Assembly: GCA_964531975.1 (NCBI GenBank)
Contig: CAZHFU010000001.1
Coordinates: 139,177-203,176 of the forward strand
Source: an uncultured Anaerolinea sp.
Lineage (GTDB): Bacteria; Chloroflexota; Anaerolineae; Anaerolineales; UBA4823
Direction: 5' to 3'
Length of the DNA stretch: 64,000 nt
Shown: positions 26,763 to 45,532 of the stretch, in pieces
Numbering within the stretch: position 1 is the first letter of the stretch
Layout: each line of letters opens with the position of its first letter
Notes under the pieces: generated by a model
What the model was told of the DNA's origin: nothing
Seen by the model: only the letters and a program-made list of their open reading frames with translations
The model's database searches: none
Program-made: the position numbers and the translations under genes

Positions 26763-26765
26763 GGG

Positions 26766-27146
26766 CTAACCGGCTTCCGCCAGGAAACCTTCGACCCTGG
26801 CCCACAACTCCCGGATATTGATGGGCTTAGACATATACACATCGCACCCGGCAGCTAACGCCTTCTCTGCATCGCCACGCAGCGCGTTGGCCGTCACCGC
26901 AATGATTGGCACATATACCAAACGGCGCTTCCCGCTGTTGCGCAGCCGACGAGCCACTTCATAGCCGTCGATATCGGGCAGGTTAATGTCCAAAAGGATT
27001 ACATCTGGGGCCATAGATTCCGCAATTTCAACGCCGCTCAATCCATCTTGCGCCCAGAGGAATTCATAACCGCGCGCTTCTAAGGCGCGCTTTACGAGGG
27101 TCATGTTATCCGAATTATCTTCTACATATAATATTTTATACGGCAT
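26766..27146 (-). CDS. Single-domain response regulator (CheY-like receiver)
   Basis: Start chosen at ATG 27146 (GGAGGA SD 8 nt upstream). Receiver residues are present: VEDN, LLDINLPDIDG, AVTAN, MSKP. Confidence 0.85.
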   Translation of the reverse strand: MPYKILYVEDNSDNMTLVKRALEARGYEFLWAQDGLSGVEIAESMAPDVILLDINLPDIDGYEVARRLRNSGKRRLVYVPIIAVTANALRGDAEKALAAGCDVYMSKPINIRELWARVEGFLAEAG

Positions 27147-28845: not shown

Positions 28846-31800
28846 TTAAACGTGGCTGTTCACCGGCAGCTCCAAAATGAGCGTGGAGCCGCAGCCGGCG
28901 CCTTCGCTTTCAGCCCACAGCCGACCGCCATGCAATTCCACTAATCGACGGCTGATAGGCAGGCCCAAGCCTGTGCCCCCGGCCTTGCGCGTGGTGGTGT
29001 TATCCACCTGGCTAAACGCCTCGAATATATCGTCCAGTTTCTCTTTAGGAATGCCAATCCCGGTATCACGGATGCGCACCTGAATACGATCTTCCAGCAC
29101 TTCCACACCGGTAACGCAGTGTTCCAATTCTATCGTGATTCCGCCCGTTTCGGTAAATTTGATGGCATTGCCCATCAGGTTAATTAGAATCTGGCGGATA
29201 CGTACATGGTCGGCGGCGACTACCCATTCACCGGCGGCATCGGCGTTCAGATGGACATACAAATTTTTATCTCTCGCCAAGGCCGCGCCGCTTTGAATAA
29301 CGTCATCGCACAAATCATACAGGTTAATCGGTTCGGGGCTAAGCGTCAGCCGGCCAGCTTCGATCTTTGCCATGTCTAACACATCATTGATGAGATTGAG
29401 CAGGTGCTTGCCGTTCTTCTCAATCAGGCCTAAATCTCCTTCCATCACATTGGTCAGCGGTCCATCCAGCCCTTCAACGATCACCTGGGTAAAGCCCAAA
29501 ATAGAGTTGAGCGGAGTGCGCAGCTCATGGCTCATGTTCGCCAGGAAGGCAGACTTCATGTTGTCCAATTCTCGCAGCCGCTCTACAGTGGCTAACTGCT
29601 CGGCATATAACTTGGCGTTTTGCAAGGCCACCGCCACTTGCGAGGCCAGCGTGGCGTAAGTACGAATGTCATCTTCCGTAAACCAGTTGACGACTTCGGA
29701 CTGGACATCGAAGACGCCCAACAGCACATTGCCAATCACCATCGGCACGGCCAGTTCCGAGCGTGTCATGGGTAAGAGTTCGTTTTCTAAGAACCCTTCC
29801 GCCTGGCGCACATCTCCAATCAGCTTGCCTTGACGGCTGCGGGCGGCTTGCGCCACAATACTATTGGGCTGGTCGGTGGGGATGGACCAACCTTCGGCCG
29901 TTTCCAACCGCCCCAATTCGCCAGCGCCTACGCTCAGGTTAAGAACAGTGGCGTCTTCGTTCATCAGATAAATGTGGGCGTGGTACAAACCAAAACGAAT
30001 TTGGGTGAGGTCTACCACCTGCTGCAGCAGTTCTTGTGGGTCGAGGATGGTAGCTGTGGCGGTCGAGACCTCCGCCACGGCCTGCAGCTCGACTGCGCTC
30101 TTCTGGGTTTGTTCCATCAGGCGGGCGCGCTCCAGGGCTTGCGCCACCTGTTCAGACACCGCCTGCAAGAAAGCTTCTTCCTCAGAGGTCATCCCCCGAG
30201 AACCATCGGGGCGCACCCCCAACACGCCAATCGTCTCGCCGCGCACCAACAAAGGCGCATCTACCGATGCCACCTGGGCCGACTGCCCGAACAACTCGGC
30301 GTAATCTTCCATGATGGGCGCAACCTGCACCCGGTTATACATGTAACCTTGCACACCGCCCAACTGTGTTTCGTAACTGGCCCATGCTTTGCGGCTCATC
30401 TGGCGCTCTAAGGAAGTAAGTTCCGCCACGCGTTCACGCAGGCTGCCTTGTAGACGTAAACCCTGAACCACAACCGCCGCCTGGCCGATTAGCGCAGTGA
30501 TGCGATTTAGCTCGCCTTCACTGATCCGTATCATATTGGCGGATTGGGCGGCAATTGCGCCGAACCACTCCCCTCCTGCCACCAACGGGAAGAATACAAA
30601 ACTACCCATGCTCAGGGTTTGATTAAATCTCGCGCCCACTTCCGCAGGGATGCGCGCATCGTTCAGCATATCTTGCACCACTAAGGGCGCATCCGGCCGC
30701 GCCGCCGACATCAAAGGAAATTGATTAAGTTGAGAGACCGAACCCGGCCGACTTAGCGGGGGTTTCCCCCCCGGCGTCCAAACCTCCGCGTTTAGCATAT
30801 AGGCCGGCGGTTTGCTCACCCAGGGTTGATCGAATAGCTCCAACGCCACCTGATCCATCTCCTGCAAACGACTGGCGTCTACCACCGCGATCAACACGTC
30901 TCGCAGCGAGTTTGAGCTGACCAGGCGCGCTGAGGCAGTGTATAAGGATTGCGTTTCGGAAAGCGCATCTTGGGTCTGCCTGAATAACCGGGCGCTTTCC
31001 AGAGCTTGTGATAGCTGATCGGAGACCAGGTGGATCATCTGCTTCTGTGCAAATGGAACCGGTTTACCATCTTCCGCTTCAAAGCGCAGCGTGCCAATCG
31101 GTTGGCCGCGCGCCTGCAGCGTTGTAACCACCGCATCTCCTACTCGCGTCGGTTTTGAAGGCCCGTGTTGATGCGATTTAACCCGAATTTCGCCCACTTC
31201 AACGGCAATGCGCCCTCGCATCATCTTGTTCAAATCTTTAACCACCACTTGCACAATCGCTTCTTCATCAAACGTGGCGCGCATGTTGGCGCTCATTTCG
31301 CGGAACGCCTGTTCCTGTGCAGCCCGCTCTTGCGCCAGGCTCAACAATCGGCGCGATTGCAGCGAGGCCGAAACCAGCGAGGCGACCTGTTGGAGCAGCG
31401 CCTGACGGCTTGGGTCAAACTGCGCCAGGCTGGCGCTAACTATATTCAGCACCCCGAAGGCGTCATTGCCCAGGAAAAGGGGCGCGCTCATTAAAGCGTG
31501 CATGCCCAATTTGCTCATCTGAACGCCTTCGACAACACTTTCCAGTTCGCCATCGCCCGGCCAGGTCATCAACCGGCGAGCATTAATCACCGCGCCGGCC
31601 GCGCTGCCCTTCGCTGGAACCGGATCGCCCACAGGAACAAGATTCTTGGCCGCCTCATCCAGCGCCAGCATGTCAAACTGCTGGTTTTTTACATCCAAAA
31701 CACCCAGCGAAGCCATCTCAAATTCAGCCACGCGGGCAGCAAAGCTCACCGCAATGGTCAGCAGCGCCTGCTCGCTGGCGGCCTGGCTCATTTCTGCCGC

Positions 31801-34800
31801 CACCTGGTTCAACGCCGCCAGGTTATCCGCCTGCTGTCGAGTTTGCGCCAGGATCTGCTCGCGCAGGGTCACATCGCGGGCAAAGACCAGCACCCCCCAC
31901 ACCTGCCCGGTTTCGTCTTGCAACGGCGCTCTCAGAACGTTGAAAACGCGCGGCTCATGATCTAATATCACGGGCGCATTGGGGTAGAGCCGCGCTTCCG
32001 CGCCCTCGAACAAGGCTTTGTCGTCGGCGGCGAAACCAGGAATGCCTTTTTCCGCGTCGCCGGTCATCATCGTCTCAGGCAGGCCCAGTTCCAGGTCGTC
32101 TTTGCCAAGGAAGGCCTCCGCCGGCAGGTGCAGCGCATCGGCGTAGCCGCTGTTGACAAGGCTGTAGCGGCCCTGTTGATCTTTAATGTAAATCCAGTCG
32201 GGTGTAGAATTGATGATCGTGCGCAGCAGCCCTTCCTGGGTGGCAAGGGTGGTAGCAGTTTCCCGTAAACGTTCCACTTGCTCAATCAACGCCAGGGCGC
32301 TAGAGGCCTGTCCGGCAATTGCCACCAACAGATCGCGCTCGCGCTCGGTATACATGCCGGGCCGAGAAGTGCTTTGCACCGAGATAACGCCCAAGACCCG
32401 GTCGCCAAAGATGAGCGGCACACCCAGCCATGAGAGCGCCGGTTTAGAATCGCCGAACACCACCGATTCAAGGCCGATGCTGCGCATTCCGGCGGTGACA
32501 TCGTCGCTAAAAAGCAGTGGCTTTTTGGTGCGGATAATGTAATCGGACATACTGGCGCGCAAGCTGCGCGTGGGAAGGTTGAGCGCGCTTTGTCCCCGGT
32601 ATGCAATGGGGAAGGAAACCTGCTGTGTCTCTTCGTTATAGAGCGCAATGAAGAAGCTCTCCGTTTCCATAAACTTTTGGGTGTTCTCATAAATCAGCCG
32701 AAGCGCCTTGTCTACATCTAGCGACGAGGAAATATCAAGGGCCATCTGATTTAATATTTCCACATTGCGCGATTCGGTCTGTATTGTTTGCAACAATTTA
32801 ACCCGCTCGGTCACATCCCGCACATAACCATAAACACCGATAATCTCACCGTTAGGATCACGCAACGGCAGCTTATAAGTATCCAAGAAATGCGTTTCGC
32901 CGTCTATTTCGTGCTCTTCACCATAGAGATACTGCGGTTCGCCGGTCTCCAACACGTGCTGGTCCACCTTCCACGAGCCTTCGATGCCCTTAGTTGGATT
33001 ACCGATCCTTAAACCTTCCGGGAAGCCTAATTGCAAGTCGTTTTTGCCCAGTAAAGCGTCAAGCGGCATACCCATAAACTTCGCAAACGCGTCATTTGCC
33101 AGGGTAAGAACATGATCCCGGTTCTTGACAAAGATCCAGTCGGGGGTCACATCAATGATCGTCCGAATAAAGACCTCAGACTGGCGCATCTCTTCATATT
33201 GACGGGCGTTCTGCAGCGTCACCGCCGCTTGGGCTGCCAAAGTCGTCATGATGTCCACATCTTCTTGCGAGAAATAGGCCAACTGGTCCGACTGAACATC
33301 CATTACGCCGATCAGATGATCGCCCGCTACCAGCGGCGCGGCCAACTCGGAACGTGTTTCCGGCAGCAATTCGTTGGGCAAGAACCCGGCTTCAGCGCGC
33401 ACATCGCTTACCACCTGACCCTGGCGTGTACGGGCTGCCCGCGCCACAATCGAAGTTTCCTTATCCAGGTCAATTTCCCAGCCGGTGGCTGTCATCGCGC
33501 GCCCCACATCTCCGGCCCCGGCCATCAACTTCAGGCGAAGGCCATCGTCCGATAGCAAGTAAATTTGGGCATGGTAAAGGTTTAGCTGCTCTTTGGTTAA
33601 ATCCACCGCGGCTTGCATCAGGTCTTGCACACCCATTGAATTGGCAATCGTGGTGCTAATGCGCGCCACAGCGGCCAACTGAACCGCCTGGCGCGTCATC
33701 GATTCGTACTGCTTAGAATAGGCCACCGCACGCGCGGTTTGTTGTGCAATCGAATACAGCACTTCCAGCTCGGCTTGACCATAGATATTAGCCGCTTTGA
33801 CGCTTTGCAGAGAAATGACCCCCAACACCCGATTGTTATAGGAAATCGGTACACCCACCCAAGAAAGGGGAACTTCGTCATCGCCCAGTGGGACGAAATC
33901 GATTCCCAGCTCTTTCATATGATCGACAACATTCTCACCAAATACCAGTTGGCGACCTGTGCGCAATATGTATTCAGTTAGCCCATTCAACGGAGAGCGA
34001 GTAGGCAAGAAGAACGGGGCGCCATCCACATACACCACGGGATAAGCAATCATATCGGATACTTCGTCGTACATTGCCACGAAGAAATTCTCCGTATCCA
34101 TCAAGCGCCCGGTGAAATGGTATACATGCTCGAGGATCTTGGTTAGATCTAACTCTGAAGAAATAGCGCGTCCCAGCTCATTAAGCGTCGCCAGTTCATG
34201 CAAGTGCCGCTCGGAACGCTCCCCAGCTTTGATCGTATCAATATACCCGCACACGCGAGAGATAATACTGCCCAGCAGCGCGCTTTCCGCATCCACAAAA
34301 TCGCGTGGCTCAGTATAAGCCACGTGGAGCCAACCAACCAGGTTATGCCCCACCCGCAGCCCGCCCACCACCTTCGCAGTTTGTTGCAGCGTGCGCGGAT
34401 CGCCATATATGGCGCCTTCGTATTCAATCGCCGAAATACATACTTCTGAATACTGAAAACCGGAGGGAATGCGTTTGCAAATCCAGCTTAAGAACTCGGG
34501 CAAGGGCGGCTTTTCGTCAATCTGATGGCCGATATCATTGAGGCAGTTGAGTTCACGCACCCGTTTCTCTAGCATATACGCCGTGCGATGCTGATGAGAA
34601 ATATCCTGCGCGATGGTTACAAAACGCAGCGGTTTCTGGTCTGCGTCCATCAGCAGAATAACATTGAGTTCCACCCACACCGCACGACCATCTTTATGTA
34701 CGTAGCGCTTCTCAATGCGGGCCGTCTGGGTCTTCCCTTCCACCATGGCCTTTAACGCTTCCGCGCCGACAGTTTTATCATCCGGATAAGTTAAATCTTG

Positions 34801-35076
34801 AAAATTTTTGCCAACCAACTCATCCTGTGTATACCCCAATAAGCGGGCGAATGCAGCGTTGATATGTAGTAAACGTCCATCTATCCCGGTCAATACCATC
34901 CCAAGCGCGATGGACTCGAAGACGGTCTTGTAGAGGGACTCTGCATCTTGGGAGGTATATGATCGAACCGCCGCGCCTATCGGGTCAAGCAAAGGCGCTG
35001 GCGATTCGCCCTCTTGCTTGGGCGCACCAGAAAAGATTTCATCAAGACGGTTTTTCAGATCGTCATTTTTTGGCAT
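28846..35076 (-). CDS. Giant soluble sensor histidine kinase (PAS, multiple GAF, PAS, GAF, PAS, GAF, half-GAF modules, GAF, HisKA, HATPase_c)
   Basis: 2076 aa with no TM segment seen. H-box MSHELRTPLN, N-box LINLMGNAIKFT, G-boxes DTGIGI and GGTGLGL. There are many GAF and PAS repeats. GGGAG SD upstream of ATG 35076. Confidence 0.9.
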   Translation of the reverse strand: MPKNDDLKNRLDEIFSGAPKQEGESPAPLLDPIGAAVRSYTSQDAESLYKTVFESIALGMVLTGIDGRLLHINAAFARLLGYTQDELVGKNFQDLTYPDDKTVGAEALKAMVEGKTQTARIEKRYVHKDGRAVWVELNVILLMDADQKPLRFVTIAQDISHQHRTAYMLEKRVRELNCLNDIGHQIDEKPPLPEFLSWICKRIPSGFQYSEVCISAIEYEGAIYGDPRTLQQTAKVVGGLRVGHNLVGWLHVAYTEPRDFVDAESALLGSIISRVCGYIDTIKAGERSERHLHELATLNELGRAISSELDLTKILEHVYHFTGRLMDTENFFVAMYDEVSDMIAYPVVYVDGAPFFLPTRSPLNGLTEYILRTGRQLVFGENVVDHMKELGIDFVPLGDDEVPLSWVGVPISYNNRVLGVISLQSVKAANIYGQAELEVLYSIAQQTARAVAYSKQYESMTRQAVQLAAVARISTTIANSMGVQDLMQAAVDLTKEQLNLYHAQIYLLSDDGLRLKLMAGAGDVGRAMTATGWEIDLDKETSIVARAARTRQGQVVSDVRAEAGFLPNELLPETRSELAAPLVAGDHLIGVMDVQSDQLAYFSQEDVDIMTTLAAQAAVTLQNARQYEEMRQSEVFIRTIIDVTPDWIFVKNRDHVLTLANDAFAKFMGMPLDALLGKNDLQLGFPEGLRIGNPTKGIEGSWKVDQHVLETGEPQYLYGEEHEIDGETHFLDTYKLPLRDPNGEIIGVYGYVRDVTERVKLLQTIQTESRNVEILNQMALDISSSLDVDKALRLIYENTQKFMETESFFIALYNEETQQVSFPIAYRGQSALNLPTRSLRASMSDYIIRTKKPLLFSDDVTAGMRSIGLESVVFGDSKPALSWLGVPLIFGDRVLGVISVQSTSRPGMYTERERDLLVAIAGQASSALALIEQVERLRETATTLATQEGLLRTIINSTPDWIYIKDQQGRYSLVNSGYADALHLPAEAFLGKDDLELGLPETMMTGDAEKGIPGFAADDKALFEGAEARLYPNAPVILDHEPRVFNVLRAPLQDETGQVWGVLVFARDVTLREQILAQTRQQADNLAALNQVAAEMSQAASEQALLTIAVSFAARVAEFEMASLGVLDVKNQQFDMLALDEAAKNLVPVGDPVPAKGSAAGAVINARRLMTWPGDGELESVVEGVQMSKLGMHALMSAPLFLGNDAFGVLNIVSASLAQFDPSRQALLQQVASLVSASLQSRRLLSLAQERAAQEQAFREMSANMRATFDEEAIVQVVVKDLNKMMRGRIAVEVGEIRVKSHQHGPSKPTRVGDAVVTTLQARGQPIGTLRFEAEDGKPVPFAQKQMIHLVSDQLSQALESARLFRQTQDALSETQSLYTASARLVSSNSLRDVLIAVVDASRLQEMDQVALELFDQPWVSKPPAYMLNAEVWTPGGKPPLSRPGSVSQLNQFPLMSAARPDAPLVVQDMLNDARIPAEVGARFNQTLSMGSFVFFPLVAGGEWFGAIAAQSANMIRISEGELNRITALIGQAAVVVQGLRLQGSLRERVAELTSLERQMSRKAWASYETQLGGVQGYMYNRVQVAPIMEDYAELFGQSAQVASVDAPLLVRGETIGVLGVRPDGSRGMTSEEEAFLQAVSEQVAQALERARLMEQTQKSAVELQAVAEVSTATATILDPQELLQQVVDLTQIRFGLYHAHIYLMNEDATVLNLSVGAGELGRLETAEGWSIPTDQPNSIVAQAARSRQGKLIGDVRQAEGFLENELLPMTRSELAVPMVIGNVLLGVFDVQSEVVNWFTEDDIRTYATLASQVAVALQNAKLYAEQLATVERLRELDNMKSAFLANMSHELRTPLNSILGFTQVIVEGLDGPLTNVMEGDLGLIEKNGKHLLNLINDVLDMAKIEAGRLTLSPEPINLYDLCDDVIQSGAALARDKNLYVHLNADAAGEWVVAADHVRIRQILINLMGNAIKFTETGGITIELEHCVTGVEVLEDRIQVRIRDTGIGIPKEKLDDIFEAFSQVDNTTTRKAGGTGLGLPISRRLVELHGGRLWAESEGAGCGSTLILELPVNSHV

Positions 35077-35885
35077 AGCATCAGCTCCCGCGCCAGGGCG
35101 CGATATTCGTTCGCGCTTCGGCTTTTGGCGGCGTACAGGTTAATGGGCTTGGCAAACAAAGCGCTCTCTCGCAAACGGGCGTCGAGGGGTATTTGCGTTT
35201 CGAACAGGCAGCCGCTAAATTTCTGTCGATATTGGTCGGCAAACAGGCGGCTCAATCTTGTGCGGCCATCGAACATCGTAATCACCAAACGATGTTCGAT
35301 AGACGGGTTGATATTTTTGCGCAAAATTCCTAACAGGCGCAAATAAGTGTTCAGCGACTGCATTGAAAAATAATCGCAGCCCACCGGAATCAGCGCCAGC
35401 GAACAAGCCGCCAGAGCGTTAATTGTTAGTGGAGCAAAACTAGGCGGACAATCGCACAACACCACATCATAATAAGCAAATTCGCCCACCGCTGCGCCAG
35501 GGGCTTCTAAGGCGCGTTTTAGGCGATATTCATACGCGCTGGCGGTATGGAGCATCTTCTCCACCAGGATGAGACCGCGGTTGGCGGGGGCCACTTCCAG
35601 GTTGTTGATGGGCGTTTCTCGGCTTACATCGGTTAGAGCAGCTTGCATCAACAAAGCGTCGCCAATTGACAGGCGTAAGGTTTCCGGGTTAATGCCTAAA
35701 GCCTGGGTGAGATGCGCCTGGGGGTCAAGATCGATCAGCAGAACCTTGAAACCAAGCTCAGCCAGCGCCGCGCCTAATGAAAGGCAGGTGGTGGTTTTGC
35801 CAACCCCACCCTTTTGACTGCTGACGGCAATCCAGGGCCTGATCCCAGCCGAAGGGGCCGGGTTTATTTCTACCGGCAGGTTCAT
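35055..35885 (-). CDS. Orphan ParA/Soj-family ATPase
   Basis: 276 aa. Deviant Walker A SSQKGGVGKTTT, LLIDLDPQ, Walker B-like VVLCDCPP. No parB nearby. Confidence 0.85.
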   Translation of the reverse strand: MNLPVEINPAPSAGIRPWIAVSSQKGGVGKTTTCLSLGAALAELGFKVLLIDLDPQAHLTQALGINPETLRLSIGDALLMQAALTDVSRETPINNLEVAPANRGLILVEKMLHTASAYEYRLKRALEAPGAAVGEFAYYDVVLCDCPPSFAPLTINALAACSLALIPVGCDYFSMQSLNTYLRLLGILRKNINPSIEHRLVITMFDGRTRLSRLFADQYRQKFSGCLFETQIPLDARLRESALFAKPINLYAAKSRSANEYRALARELMLCQKMTI

Positions 35886-38800
35886 TCGGATTCCCTGTCC
35901 TTCTGGCTGCCCAAGTAAATATATGCGGGCAGACCCATCGCTTTGCCCACCTCTTCTACAGCACGGCGCATAATCGTATTGACATCCGGAGCGTTCACCA
36001 CCTCCGCCGTCACCTGGCGAATGCGCTGTTCGCGCTGCGCTCTGGATTGGGCTTGCTCAAGCAGCAAGCGGCTTTGAACAGCAATCGCCGCCTGGCCTGC
36101 CACAGCTGAAAGGCGGGTTTGTTCGTCCACAGGGAAGTCTACCGGCTTATCGTAAAAACCCTGGATGAACCCAATCATTTGTTTGCCCAACATCAATGGA
36201 AAAACCACCGAGCTGCACCCCATAAACACATCCTGGAACAAAGTGCGGGTCAACCGATCCAGACGTGCATCATTGGCAATGTCCGACATGATGACTGGTT
36301 GTTCGGTAAACAACCCCCCTGGGCGGGCTTCAAAAGCGCTCAGCGGGTAACGTTCGGCCACGTTGAGACCGGGCGCCGCCCGGAAGGCCACCGGGAAAAT
36401 CCATTCGGGGCGATGCTCGGCAGTCAATGGGCGATCAAAAACCGCCATCATCAGCAGCGGCGATGCGCTCCCCAACAAGGTGCGCTCGGCAAGGGTGTGT
36501 AAAATATCCTGGTAACCGCCGGCGGCGTTCATCTCCGCGATCATGCTGTAAAGCGTCTCAGTATCGGCCAGGGCCGCTTGAGTCTGGCTGAATAAGCGAG
36601 CGCTTTCTAACGCCAGCGCCACCTGATCCGACATACCTTGCAGCAAATCCAACTCATCCGGAGATAATGGGTGCTGCCTATCAGCCTGCACCGCCAACGC
36701 GCCAATCACATCCCCACGCAGGGTCAACGGCACGGCCGCCACACCCTGGCCGGGCAGGTTTACAAAGGCGTTGGCTTGCATGGCTTGCCGGCTTTCCTCC
36801 AGCCAACGCCCGTCATCTGGCGCTACCTCGAGCCGGTCATAATAATAGCCGGTTTGCGCTCCCTGGCGCTGGCGCAGCGCCTGCCATCCCTGGCGGCTCA
36901 CGGTGCGATACAAATTATCGATTTCGGCCAGGCGTTCTGCTGTCTCTTGCTGCAAACGCTCGCGGTCGCTAATATCGCGAACAAAGCTCAGTACGCCGGT
37001 CGCCTTACCATCCTCCCCCACCAAAGGAAGCTTTAGCGTGGAAAGGAAGCGCATTTCGCCGCCCACCATAGAGGCCTTCGAATCCATCGATTTTATTGTC
37101 AGAGTACGGGCCACTTCATCGTCTTCTTGCCAGGCGCCCACCAGGCCTTGCTCGGCATCGCCTTTGACCGCCCTTTCATCAAAGCCAAGTTCTAATTCAT
37201 CCTTGTCGATTAAATCCTCTTTATTCAACCCCAAACTTTCGGCAAAACTACGGTTAACCAGTTGGAAGCGGTGGTTCAAATCCTTGATATATATCCAATC
37301 GGGGCTGGCATCAATGATGGTGCGCACCAGTGCTTCGGACTGTTGGGTCTGCTGATACTGCCTGGCGTTCTGATATGCCACGGCAATTTGCGCGGCCAGG
37401 GTGGTCTGGATCGCCACATCCGCTGGGGTGAAACGCCCCGCAGTATCCGATTGAATATCTAACGCGCCCAAGATGGTATCGCCCGCAATGAGCGGTACGA
37501 CCATTTCCGCGGCGGTTTTTTGCAGCAGTTCGTTAGCCATATAATAAGGGTCTTGATCGATCCGATTAGAAATCACGCCCTGACGCAGCCGGATAGCCCG
37601 TGCAGCCAGTGATCTCTCGCTATCGGTATTAATCCGCCAGCCCTGGCTAGATAGGCGCTCACCCACCTGGCCCGCTCCTGCCTTCAATTCCAAAATTCCA
37701 CGGTCGGCATCGAGCAAGTATACCTGCACATAGTAAAAGCCAAACGAGGTTTGAATGCGGTTTACTGCTCGCTGCAGCAAACTGGCCGGGTTGGAGATGG
37801 CATTGATCTCGGCGCTGATTTGGGCTACCTTCGCCAATTCATCCACTTGCTGGGCCAAGGCTTGCTCCGTTTTCTTGGCGCTTTCCATATCAGTAATCAC
37901 ATCGGCAATATAGAGAGGATGCTCCTGAGCGTCTTTAATCAAAAACATGTTTTCAAGGGTTGGGCGAATGCTTCCATCCGGCCTTTGCAGGGCCATTTCC
38001 CCCACCCATTGCCCATCCCGGTATATCGTCGATATAATATCATCGAGCTGCTGACGAAATTGCGGTGGATAATAGGCGCTCGCTTGCGTTTGCTGTTCAG
38101 GATCGAGCGATTCTTTTCCTAACAGGCGAAGCAGAGCGGGGTTGGCGTAGAATAATTCTCCGTCCAAATGCGCCAGGCTCATGCCCTGTCCGGAGCTATC
38201 GGCGAAGCGGCGGAAAACGGATACATCTTGTAATGCTGCTTGTGTATCGGCGTACTGTCGGGCGTTTTCGAAGGCGACGCCAAGCTGGTTAGCCAACGCG
38301 CTCAGCAGGTCCACATCGGTCTGGCTAAGCCCATTAGCCATATCCGACTGAACATCCAACACTCCCACCACGCGCTCGCCCACCATTACCGGCACCGCCG
38401 CCTCGCTGCGTGTTTCAGGCAGAAGCGGATTGGGCAGCCAGCCTCTTTCAGAGCGGGCATCCGCCGCCAAGATGGGTTTTCCGCTATCTGCGGCGCGCCC
38501 CACCAGGCCGCGCCCGCGGGGCACTTTATGCTCAGATTGCAACAGGCTTTGACCCGCCTTGCCCGTGGCCGCCTTAAGCTCCAGGGTCTCCTTGGGGTCA
38601 TCCCACAAGTAAACCTGGGTATGGTAATAACCATACGCCTGCTGCACATCCTCCACCACCGCCGTCGCCAAGTCAATCGGGTTCAAGATGGTGGTCAAGC
38701 GCCGGCTAATTTCTGCGTTGGTTTGTAGGGCGCGGGTGCGCTCTGCCACCCGAACCTCCAAGGACTGGCGCATCTCTTCGAGCTGCTTATTTATCGCCCG

Positions 38801-39436
38801 GCCTTCAGCCAGGCGAGCGCGCTCCACGCGCGCCCGTAGACCCACCCCCACCGCCAGCACCACACCAATAGTCATACTGGTTCCAGCAGCAGTATAGGTT
38901 TCAACTGCGGGCAGCTGCGGGTTTAGGGATGGCAGGGTCAACAAAACGATAGAATTAATTACTACCGCAAGAGAAATAGCCTCCGCCGGCGCAAAAACGC
39001 CGGCAAAAACATAGCCTAAGACGATATATGTGTAAACTACTACCGCCACGCCTGCGTCCGGAATAGGGTTAGACAATAATAGGTTAAAAGTCAGCAAAGA
39101 AAGAGCCGCCATGGAAAGGTAAGCGCCCCACCTGAAATATCTTGTCCGAGAAAGACCGTACAATACCGCTAAGAGGAGAGCCAATAAGACTAATCGTACC
39201 AGGCTGCCCAAAGACCCAAATCCACGGTTTATGATCCCCGAAGCTAACATCCCCACCAAGTCGGCCATCAGCAAGGTCACACTTAAAACGGATAAAGCAA
39301 CGGCCTGGTTGCGCTCCCCTACCTCTACAATATCGGGATGGGGGCGCGTTAATCGGCTAAAGATGGTTTGTATACGCTTGAATACGCCGACGGTTCCGCG
39401 AGATTGAGGATCCATTTCCGGGGTCTTAGGCTGCAT
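35882..39436 (-). CDS. Multi-TM sensor protein (TM bundle, GAF, PAS, GAF, PAS, half-GAF, GAF, truncated-GAF cap) with no output domain seen
   Basis: Start chosen at ATG 39436 (AAGGAG SD 6 nt upstream). The track start GTG 39451 would overlap the upstream gene. The N-terminus has about 6 hydrophobic helices. GAF motif YYHTQVYLWD..NPLLPETRSEAAVP. Confidence 0.85.
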   Translation of the reverse strand: MQPKTPEMDPQSRGTVGVFKRIQTIFSRLTRPHPDIVEVGERNQAVALSVLSVTLLMADLVGMLASGIINRGFGSLGSLVRLVLLALLLAVLYGLSRTRYFRWGAYLSMAALSLLTFNLLLSNPIPDAGVAVVVYTYIVLGYVFAGVFAPAEAISLAVVINSIVLLTLPSLNPQLPAVETYTAAGTSMTIGVVLAVGVGLRARVERARLAEGRAINKQLEEMRQSLEVRVAERTRALQTNAEISRRLTTILNPIDLATAVVEDVQQAYGYYHTQVYLWDDPKETLELKAATGKAGQSLLQSEHKVPRGRGLVGRAADSGKPILAADARSERGWLPNPLLPETRSEAAVPVMVGERVVGVLDVQSDMANGLSQTDVDLLSALANQLGVAFENARQYADTQAALQDVSVFRRFADSSGQGMSLAHLDGELFYANPALLRLLGKESLDPEQQTQASAYYPPQFRQQLDDIISTIYRDGQWVGEMALQRPDGSIRPTLENMFLIKDAQEHPLYIADVITDMESAKKTEQALAQQVDELAKVAQISAEINAISNPASLLQRAVNRIQTSFGFYYVQVYLLDADRGILELKAGAGQVGERLSSQGWRINTDSERSLAARAIRLRQGVISNRIDQDPYYMANELLQKTAAEMVVPLIAGDTILGALDIQSDTAGRFTPADVAIQTTLAAQIAVAYQNARQYQQTQQSEALVRTIIDASPDWIYIKDLNHRFQLVNRSFAESLGLNKEDLIDKDELELGFDERAVKGDAEQGLVGAWQEDDEVARTLTIKSMDSKASMVGGEMRFLSTLKLPLVGEDGKATGVLSFVRDISDRERLQQETAERLAEIDNLYRTVSRQGWQALRQRQGAQTGYYYDRLEVAPDDGRWLEESRQAMQANAFVNLPGQGVAAVPLTLRGDVIGALAVQADRQHPLSPDELDLLQGMSDQVALALESARLFSQTQAALADTETLYSMIAEMNAAGGYQDILHTLAERTLLGSASPLLMMAVFDRPLTAEHRPEWIFPVAFRAAPGLNVAERYPLSAFEARPGGLFTEQPVIMSDIANDARLDRLTRTLFQDVFMGCSSVVFPLMLGKQMIGFIQGFYDKPVDFPVDEQTRLSAVAGQAAIAVQSRLLLEQAQSRAQREQRIRQVTAEVVNAPDVNTIMRRAVEEVGKAMGLPAYIYLGSQKDRESE

Positions 39437-39437
39437 G

Positions 39438-42400
39438 TTATGCTCCTTCACTCACGACATCCGCGGCAGGATGGCTTGAACCATTGTCATCAGGCCGGGG
39501 CTGTAAATCTTCTTCCGAATCTTCGCTTCTCATGCGAACCACCACATTCCGTCCTAAGGCCATTCCCACTTCGCGCGCGGCCAGGCGCAGCACCTGTTCG
39601 GGGTCGGCGGCGCTGCGCACTCGCTCGGCGACCTGGCGCAGCACTTGCTCGTGACGCGCCCGGCGGCGGCTTTCTTCCAGCAAGCTCAAGCCCTGGATGA
39701 CTGCCGCCCCCTGACCAATCAGCGATTCTGCCTGGCGTATCTGGGCCTCGTTTAGCTTACGGGGTTCGGAAGAGCCAAAGGTCATTAAACCAATCCACTG
39801 ATCCGCCACCACTAACGGGAAAGCCACGAGAGAGCGCCCCAGGTTGGCTAACTGGCCGCGCATTGCCGGGTCTAGCCCTTCAAAAACCATGATGTCTTCA
39901 ATAATATGCGGAGCGTCCCGATTAAACAAATTCAAAATAGGCATCGCCCGGATGGGAAGACTTATACCCAACGGAGGCAAGGACGGGTTTTCCGCGTCTT
40001 GCTTGCCGGCAATCACGGTTACAAAATCAGGAGGTTGCTCAGCCCATGGGGCGCTGAACAACATAATCGCGCCCCGTTCAAACTGGCGCAGCGCCGTCGC
40101 TTTCATAACAGCATCCAAGACGCCGTTGGGGGTGTTGGCGCGGACTACATCTTCAGAGCTAGCATATAGGGCATCGGTGACTGCCAAAGCCGAGCGGGTT
40201 TGCTCCGCCAGCCGCAGCGTTTCGATATGTTCGCTCAAACGCTCGGCCACAGCAGCTAACAACGCCCGCTGATCGGAATCCAGATCGTCTCCACCTTCCA
40301 AGCCAATCTCGCCAATCGTTTCGCCGCGCACACTGAGCGGCTGCACGAAAGGAAGGGCTGTCGCAACTTCCTGGGCAGTCACCTGCGTTTGATCGTAGAC
40401 AAAGGCCGGCGTTTCGGGCTGCTCACGCATATAACTCTGCCAACCTTCGCGGATTAAGCGGCGGGCCGCATCTTCAGCCTCCTGGCGATAGCGCTCTGCT
40501 TGCTCCAACAAGCGCAGATTATCGATTTGCCTGGCAACCTGGGCGGTGATATTCTTTACCCACTCCACTTCATCGGGCTGCCAGGGCGCACCCTTACGGA
40601 TCACTTCCAACTCGCCCACCGCTTCTCCTGTAACGATAATGGGCACATTGAGTATCTGCCCGGGGGCGGCTACATCCAAGGGCCTGGAAGCATCCAGGGG
40701 CTGAACGGCGTTATCTTGGAAAATATAACCCTGCGTTTCAGGTCGATTAATGGCATCCAAAAAAGTGTCATAGCTCGCCGCGGTTCGGCGGCGGGCCTGG
40801 CGTTCAACATCTGCGCGGGCTTGCTGAACCTGCGTGAACAAGGCAGCATTCTCCACGGCCACAGCCAACTGCGCCGCCAATGTTTGGAATGCGGGGAGAA
40901 TTTCTCGATTAAATGCTTGTGGGGTCTGACTCTGCAAATCCAACACGCCCACCACGCGGTCGCCCATCATCAACGGAACCGCAGCTTCGGAACGCGTGTC
41001 TGGCAGCAAGACATTCGCCTTAAAATCCGGCGCGCTTAACGTGTCTTCAACCACTCTGGACTGTTTCGAAACGACTGCCGCGCCGTTCAAAGAATCTAGC
41101 CCCACCGGCAAACGATGGCCGCGGCGCAGCAGCTCGCCACCCGTCTCGCCCGATCCCGCCCGCAAAACGAGCGATTTAGAGCGTTCATCCATCAGGTAAA
41201 TTTGCACATAATACAAATCAAAACTCGATTGGATCATCTCCACGGCGGTCTTCAACAGTTCATCCAGGTCGCGCTGTTCCACCAACGAGCGCCCCACATC
41301 GCCCGCCAGCGTCAATTCACGTGTCCGGGCAGCAACGCGCTGCTCCAGGTCTGTCACGTTCCGGCGCAGCTGCTCAGTCATATCGTTAAAGGCTAACCCC
41401 AAGCGACCCACCTCGTCGCGGGAAGCTACATCAGCGCGGGCCGATAAATTCCCGGCGCGCACCTGCTCGGCCGTCTCTGTTAGCCGCTTAATAGGCCGAG
41501 AAATTGCCTGCGCCAGAATTACCGACAAGAAAGACACCACGCCCGATACCACGCCAATCAGGCCAATTTGGCTTTCGGCTTGCGCGGCCACCGGCGCTAA
41601 CGCCTCCTCCGATCGCTGACGCAGAACCAGGAACCAGCCCAGGCGAACAATCTCTGGGTCGTTCCGCAGCGTTGTTACCGGAGAGCGCGCAATAATTGAC
41701 GAGTAACCACCATATTCGGCCTGCGTAAAAGAGGTAGATGGCAGATCGGCTAATACCTGCATCGCCTCAGGATTTGGAAGACTAAACTGACCGTCTATGA
41801 TAGCCCGCGGCGCATCATTCGAGAAATATAGATCGGCATAGGTTTGTTGACCTGGTAAATCGCCGGAAATAACATCGATAATGCCTTGCAAATCGTAGGT
41901 GCTGCGTATCACCCCAAGCACCTCTTGCCCATCATTATCAAACACCGGTACGGCGATAACCATAACGTTCTTGCCCACGCTTGTATCATACGCGGGCTGG
42001 CTGAAATAAATCGACCCTCGGCCTTCCTGATAGGCGTTCCGCCACCAATCTTCGTCCGCCTGGTAATAATCGGTGGTAATGTGGCTGGCGGCAATCAGCG
42101 CCCCATGTTTATCGGTTAATATGGTTTCGGTGTTATAAGGGAAAATATTATCGTACTCTTGGAGATCCAAAGAGATTTGGTTTTGCAAGAACGACGCCAG
42201 CAGCGGGTTATCATCCTCTTGGTTTTGCGCAGCTTGCCGCCATAAAATGTCTGTCTGCTGAATTTGATATGCCACCCCTAGCTTATCCGCATCGTAAGCG
42301 CTGTTCGAGGCGATCAGCGCCTTTTGAATGGATTCACTGATATAAAAGGTTTTTAGCGCGTCCACCTGGGCAGATAGCAGATCGGCCACGGCCTGGGCAC

Positions 42401-43097
42401 GGTTGGCGGCGATGGCCTGGAGACTGTCACCAATGCTGTTGGTCAGGATTTCAGAAGTGCGACGGCCATTGATCCCGCCCAAAAAAACCGAAATTATCAA
42501 CGAAAAGAAGATAAACCCAACCAGCAGCTTACCGGTTAGCTGCATTTCGCGCGTCATCCACACCAGGCTCAGCAAAATTAACGTTAAAATCACCAGGGCG
42601 CCTGCTTGGGTGACGTTATACATGAACGGCGACTGAGCGCGTCCAAAGGGTTGGAAAAAGTTAATCAGACTGCCAATGACCACCACTCCCAAGGCAATGG
42701 AGATCGCGTAGACCAGATAACGATCCGGCAAGGTGAACAGCGCCAGGGTCAAAATAAGCATAAAACCTGCCAGCAAAAAGATGACGCTAACGCGATCAAA
42801 CGCTAAATGTAAACTCACGCCGGCTAACAACAGGCTGCTCAGCACCATAAACATGCTGGCCAAGGCTCGCTCCGGCCTTGCCAGGCGTACGGCCGCCAGG
42901 TTCATGCCAGACGCCACAACCGTTATTGCCACGGCCACCCAAATAACAGGCTGATAGGTGCTGACCAGTGCGTACCCTTGCAGGGCGAGCAATAAAACGC
43001 ATAACGCAATGCTGATAGAAGCCGAGATCCTAACCCGCCTTGGGTTGATCAATCCACTTACCGGCTGGAGATTACTGCTCGAAAGGCTTTGATTCAT
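39438..43097 (-). CDS. Membrane sensor (6 TM, Cache-like, TM, HAMP, GAF, two half-GAF modules, GAF, truncated-GAF cap) with no output domain seen
   Basis: 1219 aa. Cache-like block YYQADEDWWRNAY..VMVIAVPVFDNDGQEVLGVIRSTY and HAMP block SRPIKRLTETAEQVRAGNLSARA..DEVGRLGLAFNDM. Confidence 0.85.
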   Translation of the reverse strand: MNQSLSSSNLQPVSGLINPRRVRISASISIALCVLLLALQGYALVSTYQPVIWVAVAITVVASGMNLAAVRLARPERALASMFMVLSSLLLAGVSLHLAFDRVSVIFLLAGFMLILTLALFTLPDRYLVYAISIALGVVVIGSLINFFQPFGRAQSPFMYNVTQAGALVILTLILLSLVWMTREMQLTGKLLVGFIFFSLIISVFLGGINGRRTSEILTNSIGDSLQAIAANRAQAVADLLSAQVDALKTFYISESIQKALIASNSAYDADKLGVAYQIQQTDILWRQAAQNQEDDNPLLASFLQNQISLDLQEYDNIFPYNTETILTDKHGALIAASHITTDYYQADEDWWRNAYQEGRGSIYFSQPAYDTSVGKNVMVIAVPVFDNDGQEVLGVIRSTYDLQGIIDVISGDLPGQQTYADLYFSNDAPRAIIDGQFSLPNPEAMQVLADLPSTSFTQAEYGGYSSIIARSPVTTLRNDPEIVRLGWFLVLRQRSEEALAPVAAQAESQIGLIGVVSGVVSFLSVILAQAISRPIKRLTETAEQVRAGNLSARADVASRDEVGRLGLAFNDMTEQLRRNVTDLEQRVAARTRELTLAGDVGRSLVEQRDLDELLKTAVEMIQSSFDLYYVQIYLMDERSKSLVLRAGSGETGGELLRRGHRLPVGLDSLNGAAVVSKQSRVVEDTLSAPDFKANVLLPDTRSEAAVPLMMGDRVVGVLDLQSQTPQAFNREILPAFQTLAAQLAVAVENAALFTQVQQARADVERQARRRTAASYDTFLDAINRPETQGYIFQDNAVQPLDASRPLDVAAPGQILNVPIIVTGEAVGELEVIRKGAPWQPDEVEWVKNITAQVARQIDNLRLLEQAERYRQEAEDAARRLIREGWQSYMREQPETPAFVYDQTQVTAQEVATALPFVQPLSVRGETIGEIGLEGGDDLDSDQRALLAAVAERLSEHIETLRLAEQTRSALAVTDALYASSEDVVRANTPNGVLDAVMKATALRQFERGAIMLFSAPWAEQPPDFVTVIAGKQDAENPSLPPLGISLPIRAMPILNLFNRDAPHIIEDIMVFEGLDPAMRGQLANLGRSLVAFPLVVADQWIGLMTFGSSEPRKLNEAQIRQAESLIGQGAAVIQGLSLLEESRRRARHEQVLRQVAERVRSAADPEQVLRLAAREVGMALGRNVVVRMRSEDSEEDLQPRPDDNGSSHPAADVVSEGA

Positions 43098-45532
43098 GAT
43101 TGGCGCTCCTGATCCGGCAGAGAAACCTTATCCCCGCCGTTTTCGCCCACGTGTAGGCGAGCCTGGATGCGGGCCACATTGAGGCCCCGTCCCAATTCGC
43201 GCGCCGCCACCTGTAGAGCTTCCGGCACGCTTTGTGTACGTTCCACCTGTTCGATAATCTCTCGCAAGCGCACATCCCGTTGGGCGCGCTGCTGCGCTTG
43301 TTCCACCTGCTGGGCGTTGCGCAAAGCAATCGCCAACTGGTTGGCAATGCCACGCAGCAAATCTGCATCCTGCTCGGTAACGCCGTTGGTTACATTTTGC
43401 TGCACGTCAATGGCGCCCAAAACATCATCCCCTAGTAGAATAGGCACAGCAATTTCCGAGCGTGTGTCGGGCAACAGCGGATTGGGCAGCCAACTTGAAT
43501 CGGCGGCGGTGTTTTGCACCACCACCTCTGTCCCGGTCTCACACGCCTGGCCCACCAGGCCACGCCCCCGTCCAATGCGATGATGATTTTCCAACATGGC
43601 TTTACCAGCTTCGCCTGTGCCGCCCACCATGTTCAAGTATTCGCCACTCTTATCCCACAAGTAAATATGAACATGGTAGTAATTGAAGGCAAATTGGAGC
43701 AGTTCTACCACTTCGCTCACTAATTGCTGCGTATCCAAGATTCTGGAAAGTCGCCGGCTGACATCACCACTAAGCTCCAGGGCGCGGGTGCGATCTTTAA
43801 CGCGCTGCTCCAACCCGCCGAGAGTTTCTTTCAACTGGCCGGTCATTTGATTAAATGTGCGCCCCAAAAGCCCAATTTCATCTCGCGACTGTTCAGGAGC
43901 CTGCACATCCAGGTTTCCATCTGCCACCTGGCGGGCCACCTGGGTTAATTGCCCAATGGGTCGGGTCAAATATCCCACAATTAGCGTGGCAAATGCAATC
44001 ACCAACACCGTAATTAGTATCGAAAGCAAAATTGACGAACGGGTCTGTTCCGAAATAGCTGTTTCAACAAGTCTCACCGGCGTACGGGTCAACACGACCC
44101 ACGGCGCTAACCGCACAGGGACGGCCGTTGAAAGGGTGTCCTCATCTACGGCTACCCCATACGAAGTGAAGTAGGGCGAATTGCTCAGGTTGCGCAGTCC
44201 TTCGATAACATCATTTTGCCCAAGTGAGATATCCGCCGCCCGACCTGTGGGCAGGCGATGTTGTTTTTGCAAATTAGCAGCTTGCTCATCGGTGAGGCTG
44301 GTATATGTTTTATAGATTAAGTTTGGCCTGGAACTGTGCGCAACGCGCATGTAATTATCGTTATCTAATAAGACCACATAGCCGCCGCTTTGATCGCTTT
44401 CATAAGCGCTCATCACCAGCCATTGCAGCACGGCAGCGTTATACTCTACCCGCAGCACACCCACCACATCGCCCACCGCGTTACGTATCGGAGCCGTAAA
44501 ATAGATACGCGGGAGATCATCGTAAAACATCACCGTCGAAACAAATGGCCGTCCGCTTTGCAAAGACAATCGGAAATATTGTCGTTCCGCTTCGCTGAGA
44601 CCTTCTTTGGAAGGATTCGTATCTAATATATCCCTTCCCTTAACATCCAATAAAGCGTAGGAGGAAATAAAAACCGGGTCCTTAAGCGCCAGCGAACGAA
44701 GCACCTGCTCGGCCAAACCCGTCTCCTGAGCTGCGCCTTGCACAACGCCTACCAACTCCGGTAAACGCGCCTCCGTGCGCACGGCGTCCAGCGTTTGCTG
44801 CACAAAAGTATCGACCACGCCCTGAACGGCATTAGCCGCGGTAGACAACCGCGTGCGCGCTTCCGTACGCTTGTCGTTAGAAAGACGTTGGGTGTTCAAA
44901 GCCGACAAGACAACTAAAGGCACAAGGGCCACAAAGAGAAAGGCCATAGTAAAACGCACCCGCAGCGTAGACCGGCTCAGCAAACGCCGATTGGCAAAAA
45001 CATAACCCAGCGCAAAAAGACTAACGATAATTGCGGTAACAATGTAATTTCTTTCGATGTAGGTATGGGGGGCGTAATTATCATATACCAGGAATACCGC
45101 CGCCTGAATTACGCCCAACACAAAGGCCAGCAGCGCCCCCCTCGTGCTTAAAGCGCCTACCGTCAGCCCCACAATCTGAACAATAGAAATTAAAGCCAGG
45201 GTGACCCCTTGCCCAGGGACAATATCCGCCATATAGATGACCGGCAGAATGATCTGTCCTAGAACCAACAGCCACACGCCTTGCCGCACCCGCCCGCGGC
45301 TAGACAACCAGGCAGAAACGCCGGCAACCAGGGCTAACCCAACCAACACCTCCATACCGGAAGGCGGAGTGTCGGTAATCTGGTAGAAAATAAATGTACC
45401 AACCGCGGTAACGCCCATCAACAAGGCAATCACCACACTTACTAACACGGCATGGGCGCGGCGCTCTGCTTCGGATGGGTTAATGTAACCCTGTAAGGAA
45501 CTTTTTTCAAAAGCTCGTTTTAGCATTGTCAT
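43094..45532 (-). CDS. Membrane sensor (6 TM, Cache-like, TM, HAMP, GAF, truncated-GAF cap) with no output domain seen
   Basis: 812 aa. HAMP block TRPIGQLTQVARQVADGNLDVQA..DEIGLLGRTFNQM and GAF motif YYHVHIYLWD..NPLLPDTRSEIAVP. Confidence 0.85.
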   Translation of the reverse strand: MTMLKRAFEKSSLQGYINPSEAERRAHAVLVSVVIALLMGVTAVGTFIFYQITDTPPSGMEVLVGLALVAGVSAWLSSRGRVRQGVWLLVLGQIILPVIYMADIVPGQGVTLALISIVQIVGLTVGALSTRGALLAFVLGVIQAAVFLVYDNYAPHTYIERNYIVTAIIVSLFALGYVFANRRLLSRSTLRVRFTMAFLFVALVPLVVLSALNTQRLSNDKRTEARTRLSTAANAVQGVVDTFVQQTLDAVRTEARLPELVGVVQGAAQETGLAEQVLRSLALKDPVFISSYALLDVKGRDILDTNPSKEGLSEAERQYFRLSLQSGRPFVSTVMFYDDLPRIYFTAPIRNAVGDVVGVLRVEYNAAVLQWLVMSAYESDQSGGYVVLLDNDNYMRVAHSSRPNLIYKTYTSLTDEQAANLQKQHRLPTGRAADISLGQNDVIEGLRNLSNSPYFTSYGVAVDEDTLSTAVPVRLAPWVVLTRTPVRLVETAISEQTRSSILLSILITVLVIAFATLIVGYLTRPIGQLTQVARQVADGNLDVQAPEQSRDEIGLLGRTFNQMTGQLKETLGGLEQRVKDRTRALELSGDVSRRLSRILDTQQLVSEVVELLQFAFNYYHVHIYLWDKSGEYLNMVGGTGEAGKAMLENHHRIGRGRGLVGQACETGTEVVVQNTAADSSWLPNPLLPDTRSEIAVPILLGDDVLGAIDVQQNVTNGVTEQDADLLRGIANQLAIALRNAQQVEQAQQRAQRDVRLREIIEQVERTQSVPEALQVAARELGRGLNVARIQARLHVGENGGDKVSLPDQERQS

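Follow-up and report, generated by a model that had tools for sequence, protein, structure and literature searches.

A Soj-like ParA ATPase in a sensor operon of an uncultured Anaerolinea that probably handles a signalling complex rather than DNA

The ParA motor normally moves chromosomes. Protein cargos of ParA/MinD ATPases listed in a review are carboxysomes and other microcompartments, flagella, chemotaxis clusters, the divisome and the conjugation machinery (PMC10241942), and the partners of these ATPases work by way of an N-terminal peptide, short and charged, that is grafted onto the part which binds the cargo (PMC7993993; PMC10241942). Among the described systems are PpfA-TlpT of Rhodobacter sphaeroides, in which a ParA-like protein positions a cytoplasmic chemoreceptor cluster, and ParC-ParP of Vibrio and Pseudomonas, by which chemotaxis arrays are tethered at the poles; in literature searches we met no description of a ParA that serves a two-component sensor kinase. 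Here we describe a ParA gene located between genes for membrane sensors and the gene for a soluble histidine kinase of 2076 amino acids (aa), in a stretch of 64,000 nucleotides (nt) from an uncultured, filamentous Anaerolinea sp. (assembly GCA_964531975.1, contig CAZHFU010000001.1, positions 139,177 to 203,176; hereafter the window). This ParA probably handles a signalling complex, not DNA, as the giant kinase gene that follows it starts with what looks like a ParB-type docking tag. The features that bear directly on this reading are the following (ORF, open reading frame; PDB, the database of solved structures).

35055..35885, minus strand: ParA/Soj-type deviant Walker A ATPase, 276 aa, ATG start (ORF, Pfam, PDB matches and tree)
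35787..35822, minus strand: deviant Walker A SSQKGGVGKTTT, residues 22-33, with signature Lys25 and P-loop Lys30 (direct reading)
35724..35732, minus strand: Walker A'/Motif 2, D52-L-D54, invariant in the sensor-linked clade and in Soj
35451-35453, minus strand: Walker B Asp145, invariant in the same two groups
35882..35885, minus strand: 4-nt ATGA overlap of the stop of the 1189-aa sensor gene with the ParA start, read as translational coupling (sequence)
35055..35076, minus strand: 22-nt overlap of the ParA 3' end (stop at 35055-35057) with the kinase start (at 35076) (sequence)
35085-35089, minus strand: GGGAG Shine-Dalgarno sequence, 8 nt ahead of the kinase ATG (sequence)
28846..35076, minus strand: soluble kinase, 2076 aa, with three PAS and six GAF domains, HisKA and HATPase_c, the proposed partner and cargo (Pfam)
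35026..35076, minus strand: N-terminal peptide of the kinase, MPKNDDLKNRLDEIFSG, residues 1-17, candidate ParA-binding and ATPase-activating tag (conservation)
34936..35025, minus strand: Pro/Ala/Glu-rich flexible linker, kinase residues 18-47, the first PAS domain beginning at residue 48-49 (sequence)

The ATPase itself leaves little room for doubt. AAA_31 covers residues 19-197 at 9e-42, above the Pfam cut-off, CbiA matches at 2e-19, and no alternative in-frame start was found ahead of the Walker A. The family motif KGGxGK[ST] is present as K25-GGVG-K30-TT, together with D52, D54, D145 and full-length homology to solved members, and K25, G26, G27, V28, K30, T31 and T32 are invariant among 31 members of the clade described below and 19 Soj proteins. 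An earlier note on this DNA, made from the letters alone, had announced a complete Soj/ParA-type ATPase with its deviant Walker A at 35787-35822, whose gene shares ATGA with that of the sensor and 22 nt with that of the kinase; the ORF, the motif, the Pfam match and both junctions as read in the sequence bear this out, every coordinate given being correct. Tight sensor/ParA junctions recur in orthologous loci, and the ParA/partner overlap is an identical 22 nt in 5/6 of them. A programmed -1 frameshift fusing ParA to the kinase at the A-run CCAAAAAAT was considered and rejected, as the orthologues L035, L037, L042 and L043 have no such run.

In a ranking of solved structures (PDB phmmer), the closest match is Myxococcus xanthus ParA (8RAY, 6e-47), followed by the Soj proteins of Thermus thermophilus (5e-39) and Helicobacter pylori (4e-37). 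The matches to 8RAY, 1WCV and 6IUB extend over residues 17-270 (6e-47 to 4e-37), and full-length ParA/Soj matches as a whole span 6e-47 to 1e-34. Other groups are much weaker: McdA 2e-10 (6NOO/6NON, over residues 18-188 only), plasmid delta 9e-10, MinD 2e-9, FleN 2e-6, ParF 1.5e-5 and P1 ParA 1e-4. MipZ is not among the top 60 PDB matches and its Pfam model (PF09140) matches residues 19-56 only, while the NCBIfam partition and MinD models (TIGR minD included) score far under their cut-offs. Neither carboxysome genes in the operon, as would be looked for beside an McdA, nor a C-terminal amphipathic tail of the MinD kind was found, the protein ending ...YRALARELMLCQKMTI directly after the last core helix. 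With a full-length match to chromosomal ParA/Soj and all other groups far weaker, the window ParA is Soj-like in sequence, and its fold is settled by identity to solved ParAs.

Soj-like as it is, the window ParA is distinct from the chromosomal Soj proteins when placed among them by phylogeny. The genome (4.29 Mb in 95 contigs, 96.9% complete) has its canonical Soj and ParB side by side on contig C14, the former of 264 aa and the latter, encoded after it, of 282 aa and starting MTRKGGLGRGLDALIPG. When 78 ParAs of relatives and other phyla were placed in a maximum-likelihood tree, its rows labelled by gene neighbours, 35 Chloroflexota ParAs including that of the window form one clade on a stem of 1.22 substitutions per site (Shimodaira-Hasegawa-like approximate likelihood ratio test, SH-aLRT, 100). 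GAF/PAS sensor genes flank 29/35 of these, and what comes before a ParA of this clade is nearly always a membrane GAF sensor without an output domain. Nineteen Soj sequences from the same genomes form a separate clade (SH-aLRT 99), and parB adjoins 18/19 of them. An approximately unbiased (AU) test rejects the window ParA and Soj as one clade (difference in log-likelihood 226, p = 9e-9), the tested group having been named after the tree had been seen. The clustering with chromosomal Soj that the earlier note had named as part of one refutation of its idea did not occur. The sensor-linked clade appears to have derived from Soj within Anaerolineae, and has three subclades: A, to which the window ParA belongs (at least 56% identity to it), B (about 45-51%) and C (38-46%).

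The distribution of the clade was examined class-wide with a profile built from 29 of its members and run against 301 genomes sampled across the class. Scores were bimodal, with 51 matches of at least 313 bits, then a gap, then Soj-type matches of 275 bits or less. The 51 high-scoring matches come from 41 genomes of at least 12 families, ten genomes having two. Of 20 such loci fetched, 19 could be assessed and 18 have a tagged downstream gene. A phylum-wide search with the single protein did not separate the clade from Soj by score, as the clade profile did; outside the order its best matches were ParB-linked Soj proteins. A single-protein contig search returned mostly generic Soj-like ParAs of other phyla through the stretch IDLDPQAH, and these were used as outgroups only.

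Could this simply be an ordinary second ParA for chromosome or plasmid partition, lying by chance in a sensor-rich region? Its closest solved relatives are indeed chromosomal ParA/Soj proteins and GAF genes are locally abundant. No ParB_N domain was found on the window's contig, however, the genome's only matches being on C14 and, weakly, on C11; a scan for the parS consensus gave one 3-mismatch match against 0.88 expected by chance; and the contig, of at least 438 kb and with housekeeping genes such as cysS (8428-9804), offers no plasmid context. All three absences had been claimed beforehand from the sequence and are upheld, and the parB/parS partner close to the locus that would have refuted the idea of the note did not turn up. 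The true Soj-ParB pair is on C14, the window ParA falls in a clade of its own whose union with Soj the AU test rejects, residues that read ParB have been lost (see below), and synteny and tag are kept across at least 12 families of the class. Finally, although GAF/PAS/kinase-like ORFs make up only 57 of about 3445 (1.65%) in the genome, both of its clade members are flanked by them. We consider a chance partition ParA extremely improbable.

The tag is the feature that ties ParA to its neighbour. In MPKNDDLKNRLDEIFSG the hydrophobic residues L7, L11, I14 and F15 are spaced i, i+4, i+7, i+8 and accompanied by the basic residues K3, K8 and R10. The subclade A version reads M[PS][KR]xDDLKNRL[DE]ELFS and that of subclade B ..NLRxQL[ED]GLFSD, while subclade C has a Lys/Arg-rich stretch followed by [KR]RL[ED]xLF; Pro/Ala/Glu-rich linkers come next in relatives as they do in the window, and then the first PAS or GAF domain. 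The tag starts the gene directly after ParA in 31/35 members of the tree clade and in 18/19 further class-level loci (49/54 clade members examined when combined), and within each operon this version of it is borne by that gene only. A loose form of the motif occurs within the first 40 residues of 5/2077 genome ORFs of at least 300 aa, two of the five being ParA's two neighbours. The hydrophobic spacing equals that of the genome's own ParB, MTRKGGLGRGLDALIPG, and has its counterpart in L11/L15/L18/I19 of M. xanthus ParB (PMC12462528); from Met1 onwards the tag aligns with ParBs of the same order, M[ST]R[KR]xGLG[RK]GL[DE]ALIP. The overlap of the two genes was rejected as the cause of this conservation, as the motif reaches past the 22 nt and overlaps range from 4 to 77 nt in other subclades.

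A conserved peptide with ParB spacing, at residues 1-17 and in 49/54 loci, stands where the earlier note had suggested that the kinase N-terminus might touch ParA, and strengthens that idea, the binding itself being a prediction. A charged N-terminal extension on the partner, by which the PpfA/ParC class is recognized, is present here as the conserved tag. The same note had called this ParA an orphan, which is right in that no parB is nearby, and misleading in that a candidate partner is encoded next door. On these comparisons we think it likely that the tagged PAS/GAF protein, here the kinase, is the partner of ParA.

Peptides of related form were seen elsewhere. In split loci (L035:11166-15149, L042:12819-16790, L037:5243-9496) a separate kinase starts with the tag-like NP[LV]RQR[LI]EE[IL]A, and in G005 the sensor upstream of ParA starts with the similar NPVRERMDELV. 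As these have the spacing of the main tag, more than one client of ParA may exist. The 1189-aa sensor has, in its cytoplasmic N-terminal tail, VFKRIQTIF (residues 23-31; 39382-39408), a stretch that fits the loose motif and may be incidental; orthologous sensors are without it, and we made no use of it as evidence. In other Chloroflexota families, two ParB homologues downstream of Soj (L152:2090-3106 and L163:3830-4795) begin ...KRPAFRENIHRLFDEA rather than GLGRGLxALI, an N-peptide that resembles the sensor-kinase tag.

On the surface of ParA, positions were transferred onto solved ParAs through the 8RAY and 8JMJ alignments, thus by sequence only, with the following outcome.

35553..35663, minus strand: partner-binding surface that has been remodelled, with G75 for Soj Tyr, K110-M111 for Soj Val-Glu and Y118 for Soj Arg (clade against Soj columns)
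35430-35432, minus strand: P152 in place of Soj Leu (clade against Soj columns)
35262..35264, minus strand: Arg208, aligned to the Arg of the TMYDGRT motif of T. thermophilus Soj
35175..35177, minus strand: Arg237, at the position of R238 in M. xanthus ParA and K230 in H. pylori Soj (8RAY and 8JMJ alignments)

The partner-surface positions were mapped onto Y81, V116, E117 and L152 of M. xanthus ParA through the 8RAY alignment. In that protein Y81 and E117 read R13 of ParB and are reported to be invariant in ParA homologues (PMC12462528), and the local Soj proteins agree, with Tyr at the first position in 19/19 and Glu at the second in 18/19. Clade members have G/A/T for Y81, F/V/M for E117, K/R for V116 and A/P/T for L152. 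Replacement of the Tyr, Glu and Val of the ParB-reading site fits the pattern expected of a paralogue that would have changed its partner and be insulated from ParB.

The DNA-binding positions are kept in part. Position 208 is Arg in 30/31 clade members, and we take it to be the position of Arg189 of Bacillus subtilis Soj, which binds non-specific DNA. Position 237 is Lys or Arg in 31/31, and R238E at the equivalent position of M. xanthus ParA abolishes non-specific DNA binding (PMC12462528). Two further arginines, R239 and R256, are new, invariant in the clade and near the DNA-binding positions. At position 234, where Soj has Arg, the clade has Val or Leu (Leu in the window ParA).

This last change, along with the multiple transmembrane (TM) segments of the upstream sensors, would suit a tether of the MinD/FlhG/ParC type anchoring the kinase at membrane sensors, poles or septa and not on the nucleoid. 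Such a tether nevertheless seems improbable to us, for the window ParA is without a C-terminal amphipathic membrane-targeting helix, R208 and K/R237 are kept with R239 and R256 added beside them, MinD (2e-9) and FleN (2e-6) rank far below ParA/Soj (6e-47) among solved structures, and the genome is without CheW or MCP (methyl-accepting chemotaxis protein) domains and hence without a ParP-type adaptor.

The reading towards which we lean, though only just, is that of a Soj-derived ParA with a nucleoid-based mode of action whose partner and cargo would be the kinase assembly. The paralogue would no longer work with ParB/parS and would have taken the protein encoded directly downstream as its partner. 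ParA would dimerise when bound to ATP, and the dimer would bind the nucleoid non-specifically; the tag of the kinase would then dock at the ParA dimer's edge and trigger hydrolysis, and the resulting ParA gradient would space the kinase assembly or partition it among the cells of the filament. The membrane sensors, which have no output domain, could possibly travel with this assembly. Sequence and comparison show that the genes are paired, that the peptide is conserved, that the ATPase motifs are intact, that two DNA-binding arginines have been kept and that the pocket is remodelled; peptide binding, stimulation of the ATPase, nucleoid binding and positioning as the outcome are the steps that we infer.

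Much the same pairing, with the tag on the gene after ParA, would be expected if ParA were a regulatory switch, its dimer holding the tagged kinase on the nucleoid or gating its access to the sensors with no spacing or partitioning involved. ParA-family proteins can regulate, as Soj does with DnaA and MipZ with FtsZ, and with output-less sensors and a soluble kinase the availability of the kinase is a plausible control point. The sequence offers nothing that separates a switch from positioning. A tag on a flexible linker is, on the other hand, the cargo-adaptor architecture reported for positioning systems (PMC7993993; PMC10241942), and tagged partners without a kinase domain exist, so that we regard a pure switch as unlikely.

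Several observations weigh against the positioning model. With the Arg of position 234 lost, nucleoid binding is not assured. The basic residue of the tag is offset by one position from the central Arg of ParB, and binding of the peptide by ParA is a prediction from sequence comparison. The sensors are membrane proteins, which agrees poorly with a carrier based on the nucleoid only. Several genomes have a tagged protein without a kinase domain, the kinase being encoded by the next gene, which implies that what is conserved as cargo is not the kinase as such. Simple adjacency statistics are inflated by the clustering of GAF/PAS genes in these genomes, and the loci, coming from related genomes, are not independent samples. 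As far as domain comparison goes, the conserved client is a soluble PAS/GAF protein, which in the window is fused to a kinase.

The remainder of the operon and its flanks, in order from upstream to downstream on the minus strand, is as follows.

51704-53044, minus strand: 446-aa gene whose orthologues (L040, L042) are annotated as GAF histidine kinases (recurs with the operon)
50885-51703, minus strand: 272-aa gene whose orthologues (L040, L042) are annotated as receivers (recurs with the operon)
47992-50781, minus strand: 929-aa gene whose orthologues (L040, L042) are annotated as receiver-GAF-kinases (ORF; recurs with the operon)
46596..47903, minus strand: MASE11-GAF membrane sensor, 435 aa, no output domain, truncated-GAF cap (Pfam, TM segments)
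45529..46599, minus strand: NMT1-like substrate-binding protein, 356 aa (NMT1/NMT1_2 at the same place in a relative; L035 orthologue)
43094..45532, minus strand: TM dCache-HAMP-GAF sensor, 812 aa, no output domain, same cap (Pfam, TM segments)
39438..43097, minus strand: TM dCache-HAMP-GAF sensor, 1219 aa, no output domain, same cap (Pfam, TM segments)
35882..39451, minus strand: multi-TM GAF/PAS sensor, 1189 aa, no output domain, same cap (Pfam, TM segments)
27136-28761, minus strand: ThrC-like pyridoxal phosphate (PLP) enzyme fused to a receiver (ORF; order kept in L035, L040, L042 and L043)
26766-27233, minus strand: lone receiver (ORF; order kept in the same four loci)
25596-26762, minus strand: ThrC-like enzyme (order kept in the same four loci)

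Three genomes of the same genus contain orthologues of the window ParA, as do metagenomic contigs, one of which comes from a complete 3.65-Mb Anaerolineae assembly. Their loci share an order in which two-component genes are followed by several (dCache-)HAMP-GAF membrane proteins without an output domain and then by ParA, after which come a PAS/GAF protein or kinase, (ThrC-like-receiver), receiver and ThrC-like PLP enzyme. This order is kept at 56-70% ParA identity. The earlier note had coupled the lack of a link to sensors in relatives with the clustering with Soj as a refutation; the link to sensors and kinase is kept, with the same operon order in the orthologous loci. The tagged partners are mostly soluble, the sensors upstream of ParA multi-TM, and no TM-like segments were found in the 2076-aa kinase. 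The closing genes (25596-28761) are the best conserved of the cluster, 75-86% identical to their counterparts, and are likely its output.

The cap shared by the four output-less sensors is a stretch of about 60 aa at their C-termini (35885-36058, 39438-39620, 43094-43250 and 46596-46750), with the consensus QxQxRAxRE..[LI]R[EQ][IV]...D.d.[IV][LM]r.[AT]V.E[LV]G..LG....[FY]I.L. Its likeness to a GAF domain is limited to the first helix and the first strand. The same cap closes tagged partners that have no kinase domain (L035 10306-11169 and L042 10789-12822, for example).

The ParA gene lies between the last capped sensor gene and the gene of the tagged protein, with translational coupling on both sides, a location that could also be occupied by an assembly or maturation factor for the multi-sensor/kinase complex, similar to other SIMIBI NTPases and with no spatial role. 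That possibility strikes us as very improbable: the window ParA is related closely and over its full length to DNA-binding ParA/Soj, not to assembly NTPases, and the partner tag copies a ParB-type activation peptide.

As for what the cargo would be, the earlier note had drawn its analogy with the PpfA/ParC class, which handles chemoreceptors. Neither CheW nor the MCP signalling domain (MCPsignal) turned up in the 96.9% complete genome or in the operon; the cargo is therefore not a chemoreceptor array, and by cargo the window ParA does not belong to that class. A more ambitious and tentative proposal, which we think somewhat less likely than not, is that the capped output-less sensors and the giant soluble kinase form a non-chemotactic multi-receptor supercomplex that would be positioned and inherited by ParA through the ParB-mimicking tag, in two insulated copies per cell.

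The second copy in the same genome is a subclade C member on contig C2 (35168-35959). Its locus (L145:131-19130) has capped membrane sensors, a 311-aa ParA (L145:10037-10972) 45% identical to that of the window, and a hybrid kinase of 2721 aa, which has eight GAF domains and at its start a tag of another kind, rich in Lys and Arg (...KGRASPRIQGLFNG). The two systems thus differ in both pocket residues and tags. A small side branch of subclade A, with 60-62% identity to the window ParA, is found outside sensor operons (L036:9490-10368, L038:4907-5782 and L124:10001-10870), in the annotated case (L124) in a polysaccharide-synthesis locus. In none of these three loci (0/3) is the gene downstream tagged, and residues at pocket positions 111 and 118 are relaxed in them; as the branch is a single event, this is weak evidence.

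Elsewhere in the window, two tandem overlapping genes on the plus strand (9814-10590 and 10551-11372) encode small P-loop NTPases with GKGGVGKTT and the motifs CICPE and CYCAVN. They are weak AAA_31 matches unrelated to the ParA clade, and presumably metal-centre maturation factors of the CooC/AcsF type.

Were the positioning model true, two-component signalling assemblies would be a new cargo class for ParA/MinD ATPases, and the locus a natural example of the re-targeting of a Soj duplicate, with its pocket reshaped and a new client given a ParB-like tag. It would suggest that the output-less GAF sensors, of which Anaerolineae have many, function together as an assembly organised in space, and it lends itself to direct tests with a short peptide that can be synthesised and with defined point mutations. 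Insulation between ParAs could readily be examined in the two paralogous systems that share this genome. The supercomplex, if real, would be a new way of wiring many receptors into one kinase.

Among the known systems, ParABS Soj-ParB shares with the window ParA its fold, full-length sequence, deviant Walker A, Motif 2, Walker B, R208 and R237, and the window tag has the hydrophobic spacing of the ParB N-peptide at the same distance from Met1 as in the genome's ParB. In contrast to ParABS, the window locus has no parB or parS, its ParA belongs to a separate clade with the equivalents of Tyr81, Glu117, V116 and L152 replaced, and a signalling protein takes the place of the DNA clamp as proposed partner. 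McdA-McdB (carboxysomes) and PomZ-PomX/PomY (division site) follow the same logic of a nucleoid-bound ParA and a cargo-borne N-terminal activating peptide on a flexible region, but with other cargos and partner folds, and the similarity to McdA is 2e-10 only. ParC-ParP is likewise a case of a ParA-family ATPase in the operon of a signalling assembly, unlike the window genome in having a CheW-like ParP adaptor and chemotaxis genes. PpfA-TlpT, which like ParC is set beside the window ParA by description and not by sequence, also has an extra ParA paralogue in a signalling operon and a soluble sensory partner with a charged N-terminal extension, under a nucleoid-carrier model (PMC7993993); here the partner is a proposed one. 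It differs in its cargo, that of the window being non-chemotactic and the partner a PAS/GAF protein or two-component histidine kinase. PpfA-TlpT is nevertheless the functionally closest system, while the closest by sequence is chromosomal Soj.

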